From: Okamejei kenojei
Lineage: Eukaryota
Length of the DNA: 64,000 nt
Direction: 5' to 3'
Assembly (NCBI GenBank): GCA_035221665.1
Contig: CM069139.1
Location: forward strand, 55,862,001-55,926,000
Positions 5,223-50,327 of the stretch are shown here, piece after piece (position 1 is the stretch's first letter; each line of letters begins with the position of its first letter). The position numbers and the translations under genes are program-made. The notes below the pieces were generated by a model. The model had not been told where the DNA came from and made no database searches. It saw nothing but the letters and a program-made list of their open reading frames with translations.

Positions 5223-8199
5223 TAGAACGAGCCAAGTTCTTTGCGTGTCAACAGCGTCTCGTTGAAACTGTTGAACAATTTATCTGTGATTTAAAATATA
5301 TGGCTCAGCGTTGACGCTTCGGCAATATGTCTAACGAGTTAATACGTGACAAACTCGTCCGTGGCATGACTGATCAAAAGCTAAAGACTGAGCTGCTGCG
5401 GAATGCTGACCTAACCCTGGAACAAGCTGTGCATGCCTGCCGCACGCCCGAGATCGTGGCCCCACTGGGCGACCAGTCTGATTCTCAGAAAAAGAGTATA
5501 AATCTGACAGGCTTCAATAAACGAGCTCTGAGCTCTGCATTAACCGAAGAGACCTAAACACTGCCATCAAGCGACCACATTATCCCATGAGAACTGTCGA
5601 AGACGTTGCCCAAATCGGTCAAGCAACACTGTTTTCTGCACTAGACGCAAAAAGCTTGTTCTGGCAGATACCTCTGCATGACACGTCCTCGAACCTCACC
5701 ACGTTTTGCACACCATTTGGCAGATTCAAATTTCTCAGAATGCCATTTGGTATCAATTCGGCCAGCGAAGTTTTTCAGTAAACCATGGAACAGCAGTTCA
5801 CAGGCTTCCCATGTACCATCATCGTAGATGACATCCTGGTTTATGGCAAAGACATTGCGGAGCACGACCACAACCTTAAGCAGATTCTAGACAGGGCACG
5901 CGAGATTAACTTGAAGTTCAACCCCAAGAAGTGCAAGTTCCGCGTCACGGAGGTCACCTATGATGGACATGTATTCACTAGCAATGGTCTGAAGCCAGAT
6001 CCGAAGAAAACTGCAGCCATCCGGGAAATGCCTGCTCCTGCCGAAGTCCACATCCTACAACGATTTCTGGGTATGGTGAACTATCTGGGAAAGTTCATAC
6101 CCAACCGCAGCGCGCTCAGCTCACCACTGAGACAGTTCACCCGCAAGAACACTGAATGGACCTGGTACCAGCAGCACCAAAAGGCGTTCAACCCTTTAAA
6201 ACTACAGCTGGCCAGCACTCCTACATTGACATACTTCGACCTGAAGCGACCTGTCACAGTAACCTGCGATGCCTCACAATACGGGCTGGGCGCAGCCTGC
6301 CTTCAGACATCTGCCGACGGCATTATACTACCGGTATCATGCGCCTCTCGCGCCATGACGGACACCGAACAACGCTATGCCCATATCGAGAAGGAGCTAC
6401 TAGCCGTGGTCTTCGCATGCTCCAAGTTTAAAGACTTCATCCATGGGAACACTTTCACGGTTGAAACCGACCACCAACCTCTCGTAACCATCCTGAACAA
6501 ACCCATCCGCACGGCACCTGCACGTTTGCAGCGTATGATGATGCAGCTCCAGCGGTTCGACTTCAGAATAGTTTACAAAAAAGGAAAGGACATGCTCGTT
6601 GCCGACACTCTCTCTCGTGCACCACGTGCATCCAGTGAACGACATCCATATGAGTGTGATGAGCTCACTGTTCTTAAGGTTGACTTCGGTCCCACGGAAC
6701 GCCTGCGTCGCTTGGCTGCTCACACAGCCGCTGACGGGACTCTACAGCTGCTTTCATCCATCGTTAAAAAAGGCTGGCCTGAAAGACAATCCAGCACCCC
6801 ACTGGAGGTACAGCCATTCTTCCTTGTCCGCGATGAGTTAGTAATACAAGGGCCATCATCGTCAAGGGCCACAAAGTCGTGATCCCATCATCCTTACGAG
6901 ACAAATACTACAAAGAGGTACACAACGGTCACCCAGGCACCGAAGCCACACTTGCTCATTCACAGAGCATGTTCTACTGGCTGGGGATGTCTACATACGT
7001 GACAGAACAGCATCCTGCCCACTGCAACAGCTAGACACCTCACCAACAGAAACAGCCTTTATTACAACAACCTCCTCCAGCACTACCTTGGACATCCGTT
7101 GCAGTGGACCTTTTCGAATGGCACGGCACACACTACTTAGTCCTAGTAGACTCATACTCCAACAGGAGTGCAAAACAACTGATGGAACTTTCTCATCTTG
7201 CCAAGTCTGATGTCTACCTCGAACTCCTTAATTTGAGAAACATTTCCAGGGACGGGATCCTGGGCTCTCCTGCTCAACGGCTGATGTCTCGTGCAACACG
7301 GCCTCCACTGCCCGTTGCCCAGCAACAGCTGAAGCCTCAAGTGTTTAAACCAGCGACGGTCCAGAAGCGCATTCAGAAGAGACACGATATTCAGAAGCGC
7401 TCATACGACAATCCAGCAGACCACTAAAGCCGCTGATACAGGCTCAAGTGGTCCGTTTTCAGATTGCTGTGGGACATTCCCATTTGGGACATGAGAATTA
7501 AGGGACAGAAGTTTCGGGGTAACGTGACCTTTATTAATCAGGAACCGATTTTAACTGTAAAGTGGATAGGTATATGGACCTACCTTGTCAACGCCGATGA
7601 TGTCCTGTATCGGCGCAGCCGTCAACATCTCCTGCTTGTGAAAGAACCTCGACCAGCTCCCACCGGCCCATATGCACCGCCTTTGCTGTTTAAACCTTCT
7701 GCTGCCCCTGCTCTCCCCGGTCCCAGCATGCCACCTCCGCCTCGGTCGATTACTCCGTCCACCCAGATTAACACTCCTGCATGCCCACCGGTCTCCGCAT
7801 GTATCGCCGACCGCCGTACCCCTTCCTGGTTCCCTGCCTGCCAGCCCCGCTAACTTTCTGATGTGGAGGGAGAGGGGTTTGTCCGTACGCATTCGGGTCG
7901 CATCAATAGACCACCTGACAGGTTTGGCGAGTATGTTTAACCGTATGCGTTTAACATATGTTCAGCAACCTTTCTCTTTACGGAGAAGGATGTAGATTGG
8001 TTATTGCATGTGAACCCATCAGAATAGTGTAGCACCACTAACTCCACCTCACTATACACTTTATATTAACACCCATTTCCTATGTTACGTTAGTTATACC
8101 AGCGGTTACAATGAACTAACAACCTGCTGTACTGTTCTATTACACCTTATGATTAAAGATGATTTAAGATCCAGACCTGTGCCTGTAAGATCATTTACA
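5223..8199 (+). mobile_element. Decayed, 5'-truncated Ty3/Gypsy LTR retrotransposon
   Basis: gag fragment (LIRDKLVRG...LTLEQAV), RT (LDAKSLFWQIPL, RMPFGI, IVDDILVYG), RNase H (CDASQYGLGA, EKELLAVVFA, TDHQPL) and integrase remnants (HNGHPG, VDLFEW, LVDSYS); stops and deletions present. Confidence 0.92.
7991..8199 (+). repeat. 3' LTR of the Gypsy element
   Basis: Purine tract GGAGAAGGA directly before TGTA...TACA termini; internal ATTAAA. Confidence 0.7.
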
Positions 8200-20164: not shown

Positions 20165-22254
20165 GTAGGGAGATTTTCTCTACAAAGCGGAGGCCGCGCG
20201 CCAACTCTCGGACACCTCCTCCTACTTACTCCTGGACCATGACCCCACTGACGAACACCAGGCCACCATCTCGAGCACCATAACCGACTTCATCAGCTCC
20301 GGCTCCCTACCCCCACAAGCCTCCGACCTCATCGTTTCCCAGCCCCGCACGGCCCGATTTTACCTTCTCCCCAAAATCCACAAACCCGACTGCCCTGGCA
20401 GACCCATTGTCTCTGCCTGTTCGTGCCCCACCGAACACATTTCCACATACCTTGACGCCATCCTATCCCCCTTTGTTAAATCCCTCCCCACCTATGTTCA
20501 AGACACCTCAGACACTCTCCGTCGGCTCCGTGCATTCCATTCTCCAGGCCCCCATCCTCTCATCTTTACCATGGACGTCCAGTCACTCTACACCTCCATC
20601 CCCCACCAGGACGGTCTCAAAGCCCTCCAGTTCTTCCTCGACCAGAGGAGCAAACCATACCCGTCCACTGACACCCTCCTCTGCCTAGCAGAGTTGGTCC
20701 TCACCCTCAATAACTTCACTTTTGATTCTTCCCATTTCCTCCAAACACAAGGCGTAGCTATGGGCACACGCATGGGCCCCAGCTACGCTTGCCTCTTTGT
20801 TGGGTACGTCGAACAATCCTTATTCTCGGCGTACCAGGGCCCCATCCCCAACCTCTACCTCCGTTACATCGACGACTGCTTTGGTATCACCTCCTGCACC
20901 CACACACAACTGACTGACTTCATTCATTTCACCACCAACCTCCATCCGGCACTCAAATACACTTGGACCATTTCCGACATTTCCCTACCATTCCTTGACC
21001 TCACCATCTCTATTGCAGGTGATACGCTCCTGACCGACATCCACTACAAACCAACTGACTCCCACAGCTACCTGGACTACTCTTCCTCCCACTCTGCTTC
21101 CTGTATGGACTCCATCCCCCCTATTCCCAATTCCTCCGTCTACGCCGCGTCTGCTCCCAGGATGAGGTGTTCCACACCAGGTCATCACAAATGGCCTCAT
21201 TCTTCAGAGAACGGGGATTCCCCTCCCCCACTATTGATGAGGCTCGCACCAGGGTCTCCTCCATACCCCGCAACACTGCCCTCGCTCCCCATTCCCCCAC
21301 TCGCAAACAGGGCAGAGTCCCCTGGTCCTCACATTTCACCCCACCAGCCGGCAAATACAACACATAGTCCTCCGCCAGTTTCGCCACCTCCAACGTGACC
21401 CCTCCACCCGCCACATCTTCCCATTTCCCCCCCTGTCTGCCTTCCGCAAAGACCGCTCCCTCCGCAACTCCCTTGTCAATTGTTCCCTCCCCTCCCGCTC
21501 TACCCTTCCCCGGGCACTTTCCCTTGCAACCGCAAGAAATGCAACACTTGTCCCTTCACCTCCCCCCTCCACTCCTTTCAGGGATCCAAGCAGTCCTTTC
21601 AGGTCCGACAGAGGTCACCTGCACCTCCTCCAACCTCATCTACTGCATCCGCTGCTCCAGATGCCAGATGATCTATATCGGTGAGACCAAGCGGAGGCTT
21701 GGCGATCGTTTCGCCGAACACCTCCGCTCGGTCCGCAAAAACCAACCCGACCTCCCGATGGCTCAGCACTTCAACTCCCCCTCCCATTCCGCATCCGACC
21801 TCGGTCCTGGGCCTCCTCCACGGCCAGAGTGAGCAACACCGCAAGCTGGAGGAACAGCACCTCATATTCCGCTTGGGGAGTCTGCATCCTTTGGGCTTGA
21901 ACATTGAATTTTTCTCAATTCTGTTAACCCTTGCTGTCTCCTCCCTTCCTACCTCTCCCTCAGCCCTCGGGCCCTGGCATTCCCTCTATCTCTATCTCCC
22001 TCCCCCACCCTAGTCGCACCAGCTTCTCATTTTCACACCACAAACAGCTTACAATGGCTTGTTCCCTTTATCATCGATACTTTTTTGCATATCTTTCATT
22101 CATTGTTCCTTATCTCTCCACATCACCGTCTATATCTCTCGTTTCCCCGATCCCTGACCGGTCTGAAGAAGGGTCTCGACCCGAAACGTCGCCTATCTCC
22201 TTCGCTCCTTAAATGCTGCTGCACCCGCTGAGTTTCTCCAGCTTTTTGTGTACC
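20165..22254 (+). mobile_element. 5'-truncated Penelope-like retroelement (RT and GIY-YIG endonuclease), frameshifted
   Basis: LPKIHK, MDVQSLYTSIP, QGVAMG, YLRYIDD, NLIYCIRC...YIGETKRRL...EH; 15-bp TSD CAAGAATCTGTCAAT at 20150-20164 and 22255-22269; inserted in a CR1 3' fragment (about 20025-22330). Confidence 0.94.
22160..22193 (+). ncRNA. Minimal type I hammerhead ribozyme motif in the Penelope terminal repeat
   Basis: CUGAAGA core, stem II GGGUC-UC-GACCC, then GAAAC-GUC with palindromic ACGU; minimal hammerheads are an established feature of Penelope-like elements. Confidence 0.8.
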
Positions 22255-44186: not shown

Positions 44187-45530
44187 TGTAGTGGCACCAG
44201 CTAGTGCCCACAGGTAATCGAACACTGCGGTCGGGTGCCTCGGACATGTGACTGGATCAGTGTTGTGGCTAGTTCTGTGTATTGGCTGTGTTGAGTCACT
44301 TTGTTGATTTTATTGTTTTGTTAATAAAACTCGTTTGGAAAATTGACTATCGTCTCATCCACCAAATTGGTGACCCCGACGCATCCAACCGAAGATTGGA
44401 CGACATCATGCAGAACAATTACCTTCCTGCCGCCGCTCCCGACGGCCATCAAAACGTTGTCAGCCTGAAATTGCCCGGGTTTTGTCTGGATCAGCCTCAG
44501 GTGCGGTTCGCCCACATTGAGGCGCAGTTTCATCTGCACCACATTGTGGCAGACGAAACAGAGTACTTCCATGTGGTGGGAGCCCTGCCGCAGGACTCCC
44601 GTTTACTGCCTTATCTTTGGGACCCTCCCGCAACCGCTAAATATGACGGCCTCAAGGCCCTCCTATTACATACCTTGAGACTCAGCCGCCGGGACCATGC
44701 CGCCCGCATCCTTCCCATGGACGGTTTGGGAGCTCGCCGGCCGTCCGTTCTCATGGCCAAGATGCTCACACTTATGGACTGCCACCGCCCGTGCCTGTTG
44801 TTCGAACAGGCGTTTCTCGAGCAGATGCCTGACGATGTCCGCCTAATGCTCGCCGGCGCAGACTTCACCTATGCCCTGCAGCTCGGGGAGCGGGCCGCCG
44901 AACTCTGGCCAACCAGACACCAGGATATCTGCGCCATCAACCGCGTGCCCGCACCAGCTGCCTTTCACCTCGGCAGCTCCACGATGAAGGCACGCCCTCG
45001 CCTCCCACCGAAGAACCGCAGCAGCGTCCCGAGACTCGCGGTAGGCACCGTTTGTGTTATTATCACCTCTGCTATGGCACGGAGGTTCGACGCTGCCGCC
45101 GTCCATACCCGTTTCAGGGAAATGCCTCGGCCGATCGTCTGTAGAGGCGATCGCGACCCACCCAAACAACTGCCTCTACGTCCACGACCGCCATTCCGGC
45201 CGCCTTCCTGGTAGACTCCGGTGCGATCGTCAGCATCCTTCCCCCGACCAGCCGTGACACTCGTGCTGGTAAGAAGGGCCCTGTTCGTACGCGGACTCTT
45301 ACGCTCACTTAGACTCCCGCCCGTACAAGTGGACATTTATCATTGCGAACGTTGCCCAGCCGCTCTTGGGAGCTGATTCCCTCCGCGGCTTCTTCCTCAT
45401 CGTCGATTTACGGGGCGGTCGCATGATTCCGCAGTCGGCCATCGGCCGCTTTGCACCGCACAACCCGCCCCCACCTGTCCCGCAGTTTAACCCTGTCGCC
45501 GAGGTCGAAAGCCCGTCCAGTTTTCTGCTT
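44187..45530 (+). mobile_element. 5' portion of a second Gypsy element: LTR (44187-44364), primer-binding site (44368-44380), gag, protease
   Basis: TGTAGTGG...CCACCA LTR with AATAAA; TGGTGACCCCGAC; gag motif VSLKLPGF...QVRFAHIEAQF; degenerate zinc knuckle CYYHLCYG; protease LVDSGA at about 45208. Confidence 0.88.
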
Positions 45531-46699
45531 CTTCCAATGGCCAATTTACAGAATATGCGTCTTCCTTAAATTTAACACTATCCTTGATTTCCCTCGTTAG
45601 CCATGGTTGAGCCGCCTTCCCTGTTTTATTCGCCAGACAGGGATGAACAATTTTGGGAGTTCATCCATGCAGTCTTTAAATCTTTGCCACTGCATCTCCA
45701 CCGTCAACCCTTTAAGTATAACTAGATTAAGTGGGACCCATTGGGTCCCAGTCACACGGGAGTCCTGGTCCCCCAATGCAACCCATTCCCCAACGCAACA
45801 TTCCACCATTCACCCATAGCCCCTAAATGCACAGGGGCGGCTCATTTCCCCTCATCCCCGACTACTCCCTCCCCCTCCTCTTCATGTATGGGAGGGGAGG
45901 GGGGAGGGAAGTGGGGTGTGTGGAGGGGAGGTGGGGGGAGTGGAAGAGGGGTGTGTGTGTGGACGGGGAGGTGTTGGAGGGGGGAGTGGGTGGTGTGGGG
46001 TGAGGGGGAGGTGTGTATGTGGGTGGGTGGGATGTGGCATGAGAGGAGGAGGGATGTGGGAGGGGATTGTGTGGAGGAGGGCATGTGTGTGGGAGGGGTG
46101 TGTGTGTGTGGGGGGGGGGATTTGGTGAGGAGGGGTGTGCGGGAGGAGGTTGTGGGCAGGAGGGGTGTGTGAGTGGAGAGGGGTGTGCAGGAGGGGTGTT
46201 TGGCCGGTGGGTTTGGAGGGGTGGTGTGTTTGTGGGGGGTAGGAGTTTTGTCGTGGGGTTTGTCGTGGGGTGGTTGTCGTTGTGGGGTTGTCATAGGGGT
46301 GGTTGTCGTTGTTGGGGGGTTTCTGGGGTGTGTGGGGCTAGGGGGTGTGGGCGCGGGGGTAATGGGCATGGGGGGAGTGGGCGCAGGGTAGTGTGGGGTT
46401 ATGGGGGCACGGGGTGGTGTGGGCGCAGGGTACTGTGGGCGCAGGGGGGTATGGGGTGGGTGTGGGAGTGGGAGTGGGTGTGGGGGGGTGTGGGCGCGGG
46501 CTGTGTAGGTGGTGGGGTGTTTGGGCGGGGGAGTGTGGGTGGGCGGGTGTGTGTGTGTGGACGGGGGGCTTTGTTCTTCAGCTTGGCCTCAGATGCTGTT
46601 AGTTTAGCCTGAAGATCGGCGCAGGTGCTGACAGCTGAGCACTGCTCCTCCCTCTCTCTCTCCGTGTCCGTCAGCAGTCTTTAAACGGACCTGGGGAAC

Positions 46700-46766
46700 C
46701 CAGTAGCCTGCATAACCACTTTCCTCCAGACTAGGGGAAGTTTTTTTTAAATTAACAAATGCATTC
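46700..46766 (-). pseudogene. gag: ERV gag matrix region, continuation downstream of the FCHO2 insert
   Basis: (CQA)LNAFVNLKKTSPSLEESGYAGYW continues the WWP*LGSDED frame from about 49430 once the insert is removed. Confidence 0.7.
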
Positions 46767-46825
46767 AGTGCCTGACACCTCTTCCATTGTCTTTTTATGT
46801 GCCTTGGTCTGTTCATCTCCATATT
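46767..46825 (-). pseudogene. FCHO2: FCHO2 retrocopy segment C (YGDEQTKAHKKTMEEVSGT)
   Basis: Matches recalled human FCHO2 [20 protein letters not shown] and continues segment B across the Penelope TSD. Confidence 0.85.
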
Positions 46826-48796
46826 CCATAACCGACTTCATCAGCTCGGGCTCCCTACCCTCCCGAGCCTCCGACCTCATCGTTTCCCAGCCCCGCACGG
46901 CCCGATTTTACCTTCTCCCCAAAATCCACAAACCCGACTGCCCTGGCAGACCCATTGTCTCTGCCTGTTCGTGCCCCACCGAACACATTTCCACCTACCT
47001 TGACGCCATCCTATCCCCCTTTGTTAAATCCCTCCCCACCTATGTTCAAGACACCTCAGACACTCTCCGTCGGCTCCGTGCATTCCATTCTCCAGGCCCC
47101 CATCCTCTCATCTTTACCATGGACGTCCAGTCACTCTACACCTCCATCCCCCACCAGGACGGTCTCAAAGCCCTCCGGTTCTTCCTCGACCAGAGGAGCA
47201 ACCCATACCCGTCCACTGACACCCTCCTCCGCCTAGCAGAGTTGGTCCTCACCCTCAATAACTTCTCTTTTGATTCCTCCCATTTCCTCCAAACACAAGG
47301 CGTAGCTATGGGCACACGCATGGGCCCCAGCTACGCTTGCCTCTTTGTTGGGTACGTCGAACAATCCTTGTTCTCGACGTACCAGGGCCCCATCCCCGAC
47401 CTCTACCTCCGTTACATCGACGACTGCTTTGGTGTCACCTCCTGCACCCACACACAACTGACTGACTTCATTCATTTCACCACCAACTTCCATCCGGCAC
47501 TCAAATACACTTGGACCATTTCCGACACTTCCCTACCATTCCTTGACCTCACCATCTCTATTGCAGGTGATACGCTCCTGACCGACATCCACTACAAACC
47601 TACTGACTCCCACAGCTACCTGGACTACTCTTCCTCCCACCCTGCTCCCTGTAAGGACTCCATCCCCTATTCCCAATTCCTCCGTCTACGCCGCATCTGC
47701 TCCCAGGATGAGGTGTTCCACACCAGGTCATCACAAATGGCCTCATTCTTCAGAGAACGGGATTCCCCTCCCCCACTATTGATGAGGCTCGCACCAGGGT
47801 CTCCTCCATACCCGCAACACTGCCCTCGCTCCCCATTCCCCCACTCGCAAACAGGGCAGAGTCCCCCTGGTCTTCACCTTTCACCCCACCAGCCGGCAAA
47901 TACAACATATAGTCCTCCGCCAGTTTCGCCACCTCCAACGTGACCCCTCCACCCGCCACATCTTCCCATCTCCCCCCCTGTCTGCCTTCCGCAAAGACCG
48001 CTCCCTCCGCAACTCCCTTGTCCATTCTTCCCTCCCCTCCCACTCTACCCCTTCCCCGGGCACTTTCCCTTGCAACCGCAAGAAATGCAACACTTGTCCC
48101 TTCACCTCCCCCCTCCACTCCTTTCAGGGACCCAAGCAGTCCTTCCAGTCCGACAGAGGTTCACCTGCACCTCCTCCAACCTCATCTACTGCATCCGCTG
48201 CTCCAGATGCCAGATGATCTATATCGGTGAAACCAAGCGGAGGCTTGGCGATCGCTTCGCCGAACACCTCCGCTCGGTCCGCAATAACCAACCCGACCTC
48301 CCGGTGGCTCAGCACTTCAACTCCCCCTCCCATTCCACATCCGACCTCTCGGTCCTGGGCCTCCTCCACGGCCAGAGTGAGCAACACCGCAAGCTGGAGG
48401 AACAGCACCTCATATTCCGCTTGGGGAGTCTGCATCCTTTGGGCTTGAATATTGAATTTTCTCAATTCTGTTAACCCTTGCTGTCTCCTCCCCTCCCACC
48501 TCTCCCTCAGCCCTCGGGCCCTGGCATTCCCTCCATCTCCATCTCTCTCCCCCCACCCCAGTCGCACCAGCTTCTCATTTTCACACCACAAACAGCTTAC
48601 AATGGCTTGTTCCCTTTATCACCGATACTTCTTTGCATATCTTTCACTCATTGTTCCTTATCTCTCCACATCACCGTCTATATCTCTCGTTTCCCTGATC
48701 CCTGACCAAAGAAGGGTCTCGACCCGAAACGTCGCCTATCTCCTTCGCTCCTTAGATGCTGCTGCACCCGCTGAGTTTCTCCAGCTTTTTGTGTAC
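46826..48796 (+). mobile_element. Penelope-like retroelement inserted into the FCHO2 retrocopy
   Basis: RT (YLRYIDD) and GIY-YIG motifs; very similar to 20165-22254; TSD CATCTC[C/G]ATATT at 46814-46825 and 48796-48807. Confidence 0.95.
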
Positions 48797-48990
48797 ATCT
48801 CGATATTTCTGTACTTCTTTAATTCATTCTTGTAGTTTTTGTACAAGATCTAAGCTGGCTAGTTTTTCCATTGACAATTTTAAAACATCCCATACTGGTG
48901 CAAATGTTCCCAACTGACTGTTATTTTTGTTGATATTTGACCATGTTTCGTATTATGGTAAAGAACATCAAAGCCATTGTTCTTCTCTCC
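48796..48990 (-). pseudogene. FCHO2: FCHO2 retrocopy segment B (N-terminal F-BAR exons)
   Basis: [22 protein letters not shown], then an 85-nt deletion relative to the recalled human sequence, then [39 protein letters not shown]. Confidence 0.9.
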
Positions 48991-49427
48991 CAGGTCTGTC
49001 TTTACCAGTGCCTTTTGTTTCAGAAAACCTCTGTATCAAACTTTCAACTTTAGTATTCTCAATATTTTGCACTAACTCCTCATGTACCTGACCAATCTGT
49101 ATATGAGTTTCTTCTATAGATTGTGTGAAACAACTCAATATTTCTTTCATGTGCTTAAGATGAGCTTCTTCAATTTCCTGAAATTGCTTTGAGGTTTCTG
49201 TCAATTTTTGTTCAAAATCTGTTCTGGCCACTGCATATTTTTCCACATATAATTTATAGGTTTCTGTAGCTTTTTTAGATTTGACAGTTGCCTTTTCTAT
49301 TTCTTTCTGTGTTGCTCCTTCCTTCTTTAACTTTTCGTACTCAAAGCATTTGGCATAGTCATTTTCCTTAGATTTTTGCAATGTTTGAGTGATACTCTGA
49401 ATATTCTGTATTGCATCCAAAGTGCCT
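48991..49427 (-). pseudogene. FCHO2: FCHO2 retrocopy segment A (C-terminal half of the F-BAR domain, intronless, open frame)
   Basis: [22 protein letters not shown]...[32 protein letters not shown]...QIGQVHEE...KGTGKDRPG; closer to recalled FCHO2 than to FCHO1. Confidence 0.92.
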
Positions 49428-49676
49428 AATCCTCATCGGAGCCCAGTCATGGCCACCAGACTGAACTCCCCCTTATTGGTCCTTTGGTCAATCAAAATAA
49501 CAGAACTTAATCATAGTCTCCTTATCTTTACCCCCGGTGCTTCCTTCTCCCCAAGATTGCCACATTCGCCCCAACGGACTATCGGGTGGAATGTGAGGAC
49601 CCTCTTCCCTCGGTCCCTTTTTCTTAGCACCCTGTTTATCTCCAGGGTCATTATTCTTAACACATTGATTCCCTGT
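49428..49676 (-). pseudogene. gag: ERV gag N-terminus (matrix), decayed
   Basis: GNQCVK...IPPDSPLGRMWQSW...GKDKETMIKFCYFD*PK / PIRGSSVWWP*LGSDED; resembles class I (gamma/epsilon-like) ERV Gag N-termini; lies downstream of the primer-binding site and leader. Confidence 0.75.
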
Positions 49677-49930
49677 CCGACCTTCCCCGTCCGACAGAAC
49701 CCAATCGCCCGAGTAATACTTAATAGTCAGTTTTCTCACTCGGGTCCTGTGCACAGGAATTGCTCGATTGATCCCTTCCTTACTCCGGATTCCCTCTTGT
49801 TTCTCGAGTCTCTTGTCTGGATATCACTCGCTCAAACCGCTGACGGCAAGCAAGGAGATCAGAGACTGCTGAAATCAGCAGGGTGCACCTTCCCTTCCTT
49901 CCGCGCCTCCGCCGAGCGGCCGAATTGGCG

Positions 49931-49948
49931 ATCTCGGACGAGCCCCCA
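49931..49948 (-). promoter_or_regulatory. Retroviral primer-binding site, tRNA-Pro type
   Basis: TGGGGGCTCGTCCGAGAT matches the MLV PBS-Pro TGGGGGCTCGTCCGGGAT at 17 of 18 positions; 4 nt after a ...CA LTR end. Confidence 0.92.
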
Positions 49949-49952
49949 AGCT

Positions 49953-50160
49953 TGTGAGATGTATTTCAGTGCCCACAATCACAATGCCAGAGACAAAGTC
50001 GTGGAAACAAGAAATGCGTTTATTTACGAGTCTGCAGAGCCGGGTGCCTCTCCAAACCAAGACACACCTAGGTCAAGAAAATACCCCCCTTTATACAACA
50101 CAATTTCACTGAATCAGCCTCCCCTTCTGGCTCCTTCCAATTGGAGCGATGAGGTGCACA
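49953..50160 (-). mobile_element. ERV 5' LTR, probably 5'-truncated
   Basis: On the - strand, in order: CCAAT (in 50137-50144), TATAAA (50090-50095), AATAAA (50019-50024), terminal CA (49953-49954). Confidence 0.8.
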
Positions 50161-50327
50161 CTCTGTCGCAAACCATTTTTGCGCAGACAGACCACGCAAC
50201 CAGAAGATAACACGATCAGTTTTAGGTATGTATAGATTTGCCCGTCTAACATAGCCATTTCCCGCCTCATATCTTCAAAGTCTCCTTTTTTAAGTTCAGG
50301 ACCCAAGTCTCTGAATTAACCGTGTCA

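Follow-up and report, generated by a model that had tools for sequence, protein, structure and literature searches.

How can a spliced piece of a host message enter a genome with its exons in permuted order and without a poly(A) tail? This question is raised by a 64,000-nt stretch of DNA (here called the window), in which the minus strand at 49425-48808 and 46825-46767 carries FCHO2 F-BAR sequence without introns (Table 1). The sequence matched residues 123-267 of PDB 2v0o (E 1.8e-61), in agreement with an initial annotation that had recognised it from the letters alone. The exons follow each other in the order 5 (nt 20-153), 6, 7, 8 and then 2, 3, 4 and 5 (nt 1-24). Exon 1, exon 9 onward, introns and a poly(A) tail are all absent from the window insert, as had been annotated for the first residues, the downstream exons and the tail, and its 3′ end continues into gag. 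The earlier residue numbering, which started from MVMAYFVENFW, proved wrong for the host, where exon 1 reads MSHFVDNFW. Two gaps of 85 nt and 6 nt are genuine and leave 672 of 763 nt in place. A splicing product was ruled out for the 85-nt gap; its ends lack GT/AG, and two other copies retain the 85 nt.

Table 1. Features of the window copy and its surroundings (positions within the window).
Feature	Position	Strand	Basis or remark
5′ LTR, 3′ part	49953..50164	-	90-92% identity over 213 nt to 3′ LTRs of two copies
LTR landmarks	TATA-like 50095-50090; AATAAA 50024-50019	-	
Primer-binding-site-like motif, directly after LTR	49935..49948	-	position
Leader and broken gag 5′ part	49426..49934	-	~85% identity to insert-free L056, L060
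FCHO2 exon 5 (nt 20-153), 6, 7, 8, spliced	48991..49425	-	93-99% identity to parent exons, G000:C3
Back-splice junction, exon 8 donor to exon 2 acceptor	48990..48991	-	parent splice-site mapping
FCHO2 exon 2 (nt 1-65), 85-nt deletion, exon 3 end, exon 4 to Penelope insertion	48808..48990	-	6-nt deletion inside
Penelope-like retroelement, later	46826..48807	+	RVT_1 E 9.8e-7, GIY-YIG E 3.9e-4 (both slightly below Pfam cut-offs)
FCHO2 exon 4 end and exon 5 start, turn closed	46767..46825	-	last 8 nt common to viral target
gag resumed, ~90 nt	46678..46766	-	85% identity to insert-free L060
RRBP1-like second cargo, start	46568..46677	-	window copy ends here in C-rich low-complexity DNA

When the 2.76-Gb genome was searched for the acceptor followed by the start of exon 2, a single place was found (G000:C3:19338833), and the muHD exons of the parent locus lie 140 kb downstream of it. 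Parent exons 2-8, each with AG/GT ends, add up to 763 nt (92+75+142+153+105+99+97), which equals the annotated sum of 672, 85 and 6 nt. At 48991|48990 the last base of exon 8, followed in the parent by GTAAG, is joined to the first base of exon 2, preceded in the parent by CAG. The jump proposed at this point is therefore an exact join of the exon 8 donor to the exon 2 acceptor. In the present-day assembly each of exons 2-8 gave a single match in 260 kb of the parent locus, with no tandem duplication of these exons, and they alone matched when the window insert was compared with these 260 kb. Entry into and exit from the cargo lie within 5 nt of the same exon-5 position, which, independently of the junction, again speaks for a circle. 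In all 762-768 nt were captured, the exact figure varying with the crossover point chosen in the shared octamer, and this corresponds to one turn of a 763-nt circle. We consider it very probable that the FCHO2 template was circular.

The insert was later interrupted by a Penelope-like element. Its target duplication, already noted in the annotation, is 12 nt long with one mismatch (48807-48796 repeats 46825-46814). The end of the element resembles its target (GAGATG-ACA), which suggests an insertion primed by homology. This element was rejected as the capturing agent; it is present in one of the 17 longest copies, and the others are continuous there. A related RT frame lies at 20169-21395. The window also contains a 313-codon open frame at 44273-45211 with a DUF7041 match (E 1.2e-10), likely a gypsy-type gag, as well as, at 5782-6879, a different LTR element recognisable by its RT and RNase H-like domains.

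The flanks of the insert are retroviral, and the initial annotation made no mention of them (LTR, primer-binding site, gag). FCHO2 sits inside gag of a gamma-like endogenous retrovirus, in the sense orientation relative to the viral RNA. The primer-binding-site-like motif presumably resembles the tRNA-Pro site of gamma-type retroviruses. No more of the retroviral element was found elsewhere in the window, and the window copy is truncated at both ends. In other copies a single element with an LTR at each end surrounds the cargo. Complete cargo-bearing elements measure ~5.5-5.8 kb when they hold the full turn and 3.9-6.9 kb in a truncated class, and their LTR pairs diverge by 0.040-0.042 in three full-turn elements, as against 0.016-0.019 in three of the truncated class. 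Target duplications of 4 nt were seen in five of seven elements with both ends called, four of six with cargo; 20 elements were fetched for this scoring, 13 of them not scorable automatically. L071 and L082 failed the automatic test, L071 having CCAT on both sides (an internal start was taken). The insert-free relative L060/L084 matched Gag_p30 (PF02093), zf-CCHC (PF00098), MLVIN_C (PF18697) and TLV_coat (PF00429) over the cut-offs, and the cargo-bearing L068 has an integrase core (PF00665). Because of the L060/L084 domain matches, the carrier is assigned as a putative class I, gamma/epsilon-like retrovirus. Since an enveloped relative of the carrier exists, a germline circRNA is not required, and the virus could have made the capture in a somatic cell and reached the germline only later. 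The earlier reading as a fossil of germline circRNA thus keeps its circle but loses its need for the germline.

Insert-free relatives, including L056 and L060, are continuous across the insertion site, and contigs of runs X17, X20 and X21 are likewise without insert there. In the filled copies ~5 viral nt are replaced. Compared with the insert-free relatives, gag is not duplicated around the insert, and neither poly(A) nor non-LTR sequence was found at either end; the poly(A) and the 7-20-nt target duplication of a LINE-made processed pseudogene are both lacking. The AGGCACT that had been annotated at both ends is present in the window copy, but its 5′ occurrence is private to it. Among the 30 copies with a readable 5′ junction, 23 have GGGCACT and one, that of the window, AGGCACT, and the parent reads AAGCACT. 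The terminal overlap common to both ends is GCACT. AGGCACT was rejected as a target-site duplication, as insert-free relatives show nothing duplicated.

At the 5′ end host and virus agree in three of four nt, and the fourth position may represent a G-U pair between the new DNA and the viral RNA. The viral letter was found at this junction in 2 of the 30 copies, so that the crossover can be placed only to within 3 nt. Of the 15 copies readable at the 3′ end, 11 have CAGGCACT versus CAAGCACT in the host, alike in seven of eight positions; a 7/8 match at a random junction has a frequency of 7.4e-4. In the closest insert-free copy of this genome, ~85% identical to the family, the host octamer is matched at six of eight positions; the true target is bracketed, not seen. 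At the landing codon (G000:C3:19363066-19363068) the host has Ser (AGC) and the human chain in the PDB has Gly. The host letter was also found in contigs of two other organisms, and the virus is therefore the probable source of the G in the copies.

A 620-nt piece of the insert was found at no fewer than 40 genomic places (40 of 655 candidates scored). In the 30 copies fetched, the match continued upstream through a gag-like stretch and mostly also through the leader and LTR. The virus-FCHO2 5′ junction occurs at 158 places and the back-splice motif at 14, each against a control of 0. Segmental duplication was rejected as the source of the copies; their flanks differ and the ends carry 4-nt duplications. 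The 32 copies differ from the host exons by 3.4-5.2%, with one at 9.6%. At 17 positions, 14 of them synonymous, 70% or more of the copies depart from the host. These shared differences show a single origin of all copies, and they are what a host gene evolving on under selection after one capture would leave. The 191 private changes include 43 synonymous ones (22.5% versus 26.8% under neutrality) and 15 stops. The cargo decays neutrally and has no coding role. What had been described as a circRNA-derived pseudogene very probably does go back to a circular template, but it is neither stand-alone nor one-off; it is retroviral cargo amplified by the virus.

The derivatives share the same 5′ junction. 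Among the first 30 copies, 17 are of the type with a full turn minus 85 nt, some of them damaged, and 13 end in exon 8. L121 and L122 have kept the 85 nt and lost the back-splice junction. The junction-less copies are best explained as deletion derivatives of the same capture, and they would look like ordinary linear captures. The most numerous and youngest class (L018-L030, L080-L083) holds only 372 nt of FCHO2 and has a different LTR type. It continues in sequence common to ERV subfamily L052-L054 and looks like a later recombinant. L066 (G000:C6:51115654) has full-turn cargo, with LTRs that are ~73% like those of its siblings and ~85% like those of the truncated class; it is an LTR swap between subfamilies. 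L062 (G000:C26:40886852-40889871), of a more distant subfamily, has an insert-free gag site, and FCHO2 exon 7-8 with the tail of the truncated class lies ~1.1 kb downstream of it. This is another recombinant with part of the cargo.

FCHO2 is followed by further host sequence. About 90 nt after it, joined via short homology, a spliced series of ten exons in colinear order begins; it stems from a PF05104 gene on C8 (G000:C8:43659511-43685949), which we take to be RRBP1-like rather than kinectin, a protein that also has PF05104. Next come a C-terminal piece of a PF07111 (CCHCR1-like) protein (E 4.7e-17) and a pol remnant with integrase core. For this third cargo the ESM Atlas gave nothing above 0.86. 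At ~2275-3600 of L068 and L073 (G000:C605, C13) RRBP1-like exons with internal deletions and the CCHCR1-like piece were seen. The RRBP1/CCHCR1 block replaces most of gag-pol, unlike FCHO2 with its ~5 nt, and the window copy breaks off ~110 nt into the RRBP1-like cargo. A single-cargo intermediate was not found, as all 17 true gag-RRBP1 junctions have FCHO2 upstream (20 matches, from which three unrelated repeats were left out). Judged by these matches, three host genes would be joined in one defective ERV.

We think it likely that the viral reverse transcriptase switched to a co-packaged circFCHO2 and copied one turn, and that the product later spread as a defective element. The evidence consists of DNA fossils throughout, from which we infer that the enzyme changed template, that the circle was packaged with the virus and that RNase H ended the copying. 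Minus-strand synthesis would start from the 3′ side of the viral RNA until the new DNA end stops on the octamer. This end would then anneal to exon 5 of circFCHO2, where the octamer is nearly the same, and copying would go round the circle through exons 4, 3 and 2, the back-splice and exons 8, 7, 6 and 5. RNase H trails the polymerase during reverse transcription. A nick a few bases inside the landing duplex would cause run-off after one turn, with GCACT copied twice, and the run-off strand would re-pair with unread viral RNA a few bases from the departure point. Such a nick would account for the single turn, the 5-nt overlap and the return near the point of departure. Later copies would have been mobilised in trans and have lost parts of the cargo. 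We lean slightly towards a general rule: the landing site is where RNase H would open the circle, so that one turn is captured, a few nt overlap at its ends and hardly any viral sequence is lost. In the accessible text of Tan et al. 2016 (PMC5131818), short homology lets retroviral RT change template to host RNA packaged alongside, and the multi-cargo element described here matches the multi-gene pattern of LTR-mediated retroposition given there. The accessible part of a recent preprint (bioRxiv 10.64898/2026.01.21.700838) has host circRNA packaged by HIV-1 and MLV particles.

The same circle might instead have been inserted into a resident provirus, by a non-LTR RT (CR1/L2/Penelope) or by RNA-templated break repair, and then copied on with it. 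We regard this as unlikely. An interrupted gag with a loss of only ~5 nt is how such an insertion would look, and the window is rich in non-LTR elements. CR1-type insertions are frequently without target duplications; here, however, a tail and non-LTR sequence are missing at either end along with the duplication. Moreover, the cargo lies in viral RNA sense and is accompanied by two more host pieces, the first joined via short homology, and a chance strike on a small, still mobilisable target is improbable. When the deleted 85 nt were searched for, they were found in the parent and two viral copies only, with no free-standing copy. Enzymes without RNase H would also have no clear cause to stop after one turn.

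Less probable by a clear step is a linear template, either an exon-repeated mRNA (from trans-splicing or a tandem duplication since lost) or an RT jump that left exon 2 and landed at the end of exon 8. CTGG occurs at both the exon 1|2 and the exon 8|9 border, one base off the back-splice register, and a homology-led jump on linear mRNA would yield this junction too if the founder then lost one G. Several homology-led internal deletions in the element also indicate that RT jumps readily. However, the best local homology at the junction (4 nt) would yield four Gs, and this product was found in none of the 15 readable copies (32 examined), which all have three. A message of exons 1-9 allows 244,393 distinct backward jumps, of which 28 join a donor exactly to an upstream acceptor; when at least 2 nt of homology are demanded, the figure is 16 of 19,603 (8e-4). 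A linear template offers no cause for entry and exit within 5 nt of one exon-5 position, and the exons are single-copy today. Between introns 1 and 8 there are 11 inverted matches of at least 100 nt, between introns 2 and 8 there are 0; these present-day repeats are weakly consistent with back-splicing.

That the F-BAR cargo was retained for a useful viral or host protein, like the KIT-ligand of crocodilian ERVs, is hardly credible in spite of a 145-codon open F-BAR stretch in the window and an abundant cargo-bearing family, as a stop precedes the stretch and gag is read in another frame, the frame changes at the back-splice (763 is not divisible by 3), the private changes are neutral with their stops, and the most numerous class is without half of the cargo. 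A Gag-F-BAR fusion protein was rejected on the same frame mismatch, preceding stop and neutral private changes.

Contigs of other organisms were also inspected. Those of four runs that we guessed to be RNA, and of X18, run linearly across exon 1-2 and exon 8-9. An exon 8-exon 2 join carrying parent alleles was not present among the contigs listed; contigs of this kind, from other organisms, drop rare forms. In X20 one contig spans the back-splice, with 29 letters on the short side (bar 31), and in X17 and X21 no virus-FCHO2 junction contig was among those listed. The virus-FCHO2 5′ junction was also found in organisms A and F, whose word share with the host stretch is at most 0.23, which suggests that they are other species. 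Because A and F carry this junction and have such a low word share, the capture probably predates the splits from them.

How circRNAs re-enter genomes without poly(A) was left open by the first description of such pseudogenes (PMC4897178). Here the parent gene and insert-free viral relatives are at hand together with the two switch points and a series of copies, so that the question becomes testable. It is also a dated record of FCHO2 exons 2-8 being back-spliced in a non-mammalian vertebrate, and it calls for caution in circRNA calling, where genomic copies of the junction will imitate back-splice reads. If the case is general, multi-copy families of circRNA pseudogenes such as mouse circRFWD2 in MMERVK10C would be single ERV-amplified captures, many 'linear' ERV cargoes would be deletion derivatives of captured circles, and retroviruses could shuffle exons in permuted order via circRNA.

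Both halves of this case, the circRNA pseudogene and the capture of host RNA by an ERV, are known already, and their link has been suspected. FCHO2 makes circular RNA in human as well, although hsa_circ_0002490 comprises exons 19-20, not 2-8, in the accessible text of PMC10838848. The crocodilian ERVs with KIT-ligand and nectin3 (Chong et al. 2014, PMC4299795) resemble our element in being multi-copy captures of host RNA in a non-mammalian vertebrate. In the accessible part of that report, however, they hold linear full ORFs, with KIT-ligand under purifying selection, whereas the cargo here is non-colinear, out of frame and neutral. LTR-mediated retroposition (PMC5131818, with maize Bs1 and HERV-K FAM8A1 cited there) likewise places host RNA in an LTR element, and the accessible text describes homology at both switch points, several genes per element and non-autonomous recopying. 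It differs in having linear mRNA templates ('circular' occurs 0 times in the main text) and in replacing part of the ORFs, whereas here the template was back-spliced, a full turn was copied and ~5 nt were replaced.

The closest case is that of mouse, where Dong et al. 2016 (PMC4897178) described 33 circRFWD2 pseudogenes with the junction and nine without, beside MMERVK10C-int, and called the mechanism 'mysterious'; the accessible part of a 2017 review (PMC5408686) merely suggested LTR mediation. Both families are dispersed and multi-copy, with a back-splice (exon 6-exon 2 in circRFWD2), no poly(A), ERV flanks and some junction-less copies. The mouse family differs in being mammalian, in its ERV-K-type element and in that the copies were not read as one ERV-amplified capture, although copy-level details may sit in Table S1 of that paper, which is barely text-searchable. 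Our literature search, with subscription papers mostly outside its scope, found no non-mammalian circRNA pseudogene, no junction-level dissection and no account of this element. As far as this search shows, the non-mammalian case, the insert-free relatives, both switch points, the one-turn length, the co-capture with linear messages and the tracing of junction-less copies to the same event are new. In the mouse study no empty site or junction homology was analysed, whereas the present case resolves the empty site and the two junctions, gives the captured length as one turn and shows how the junction-less copies arose.
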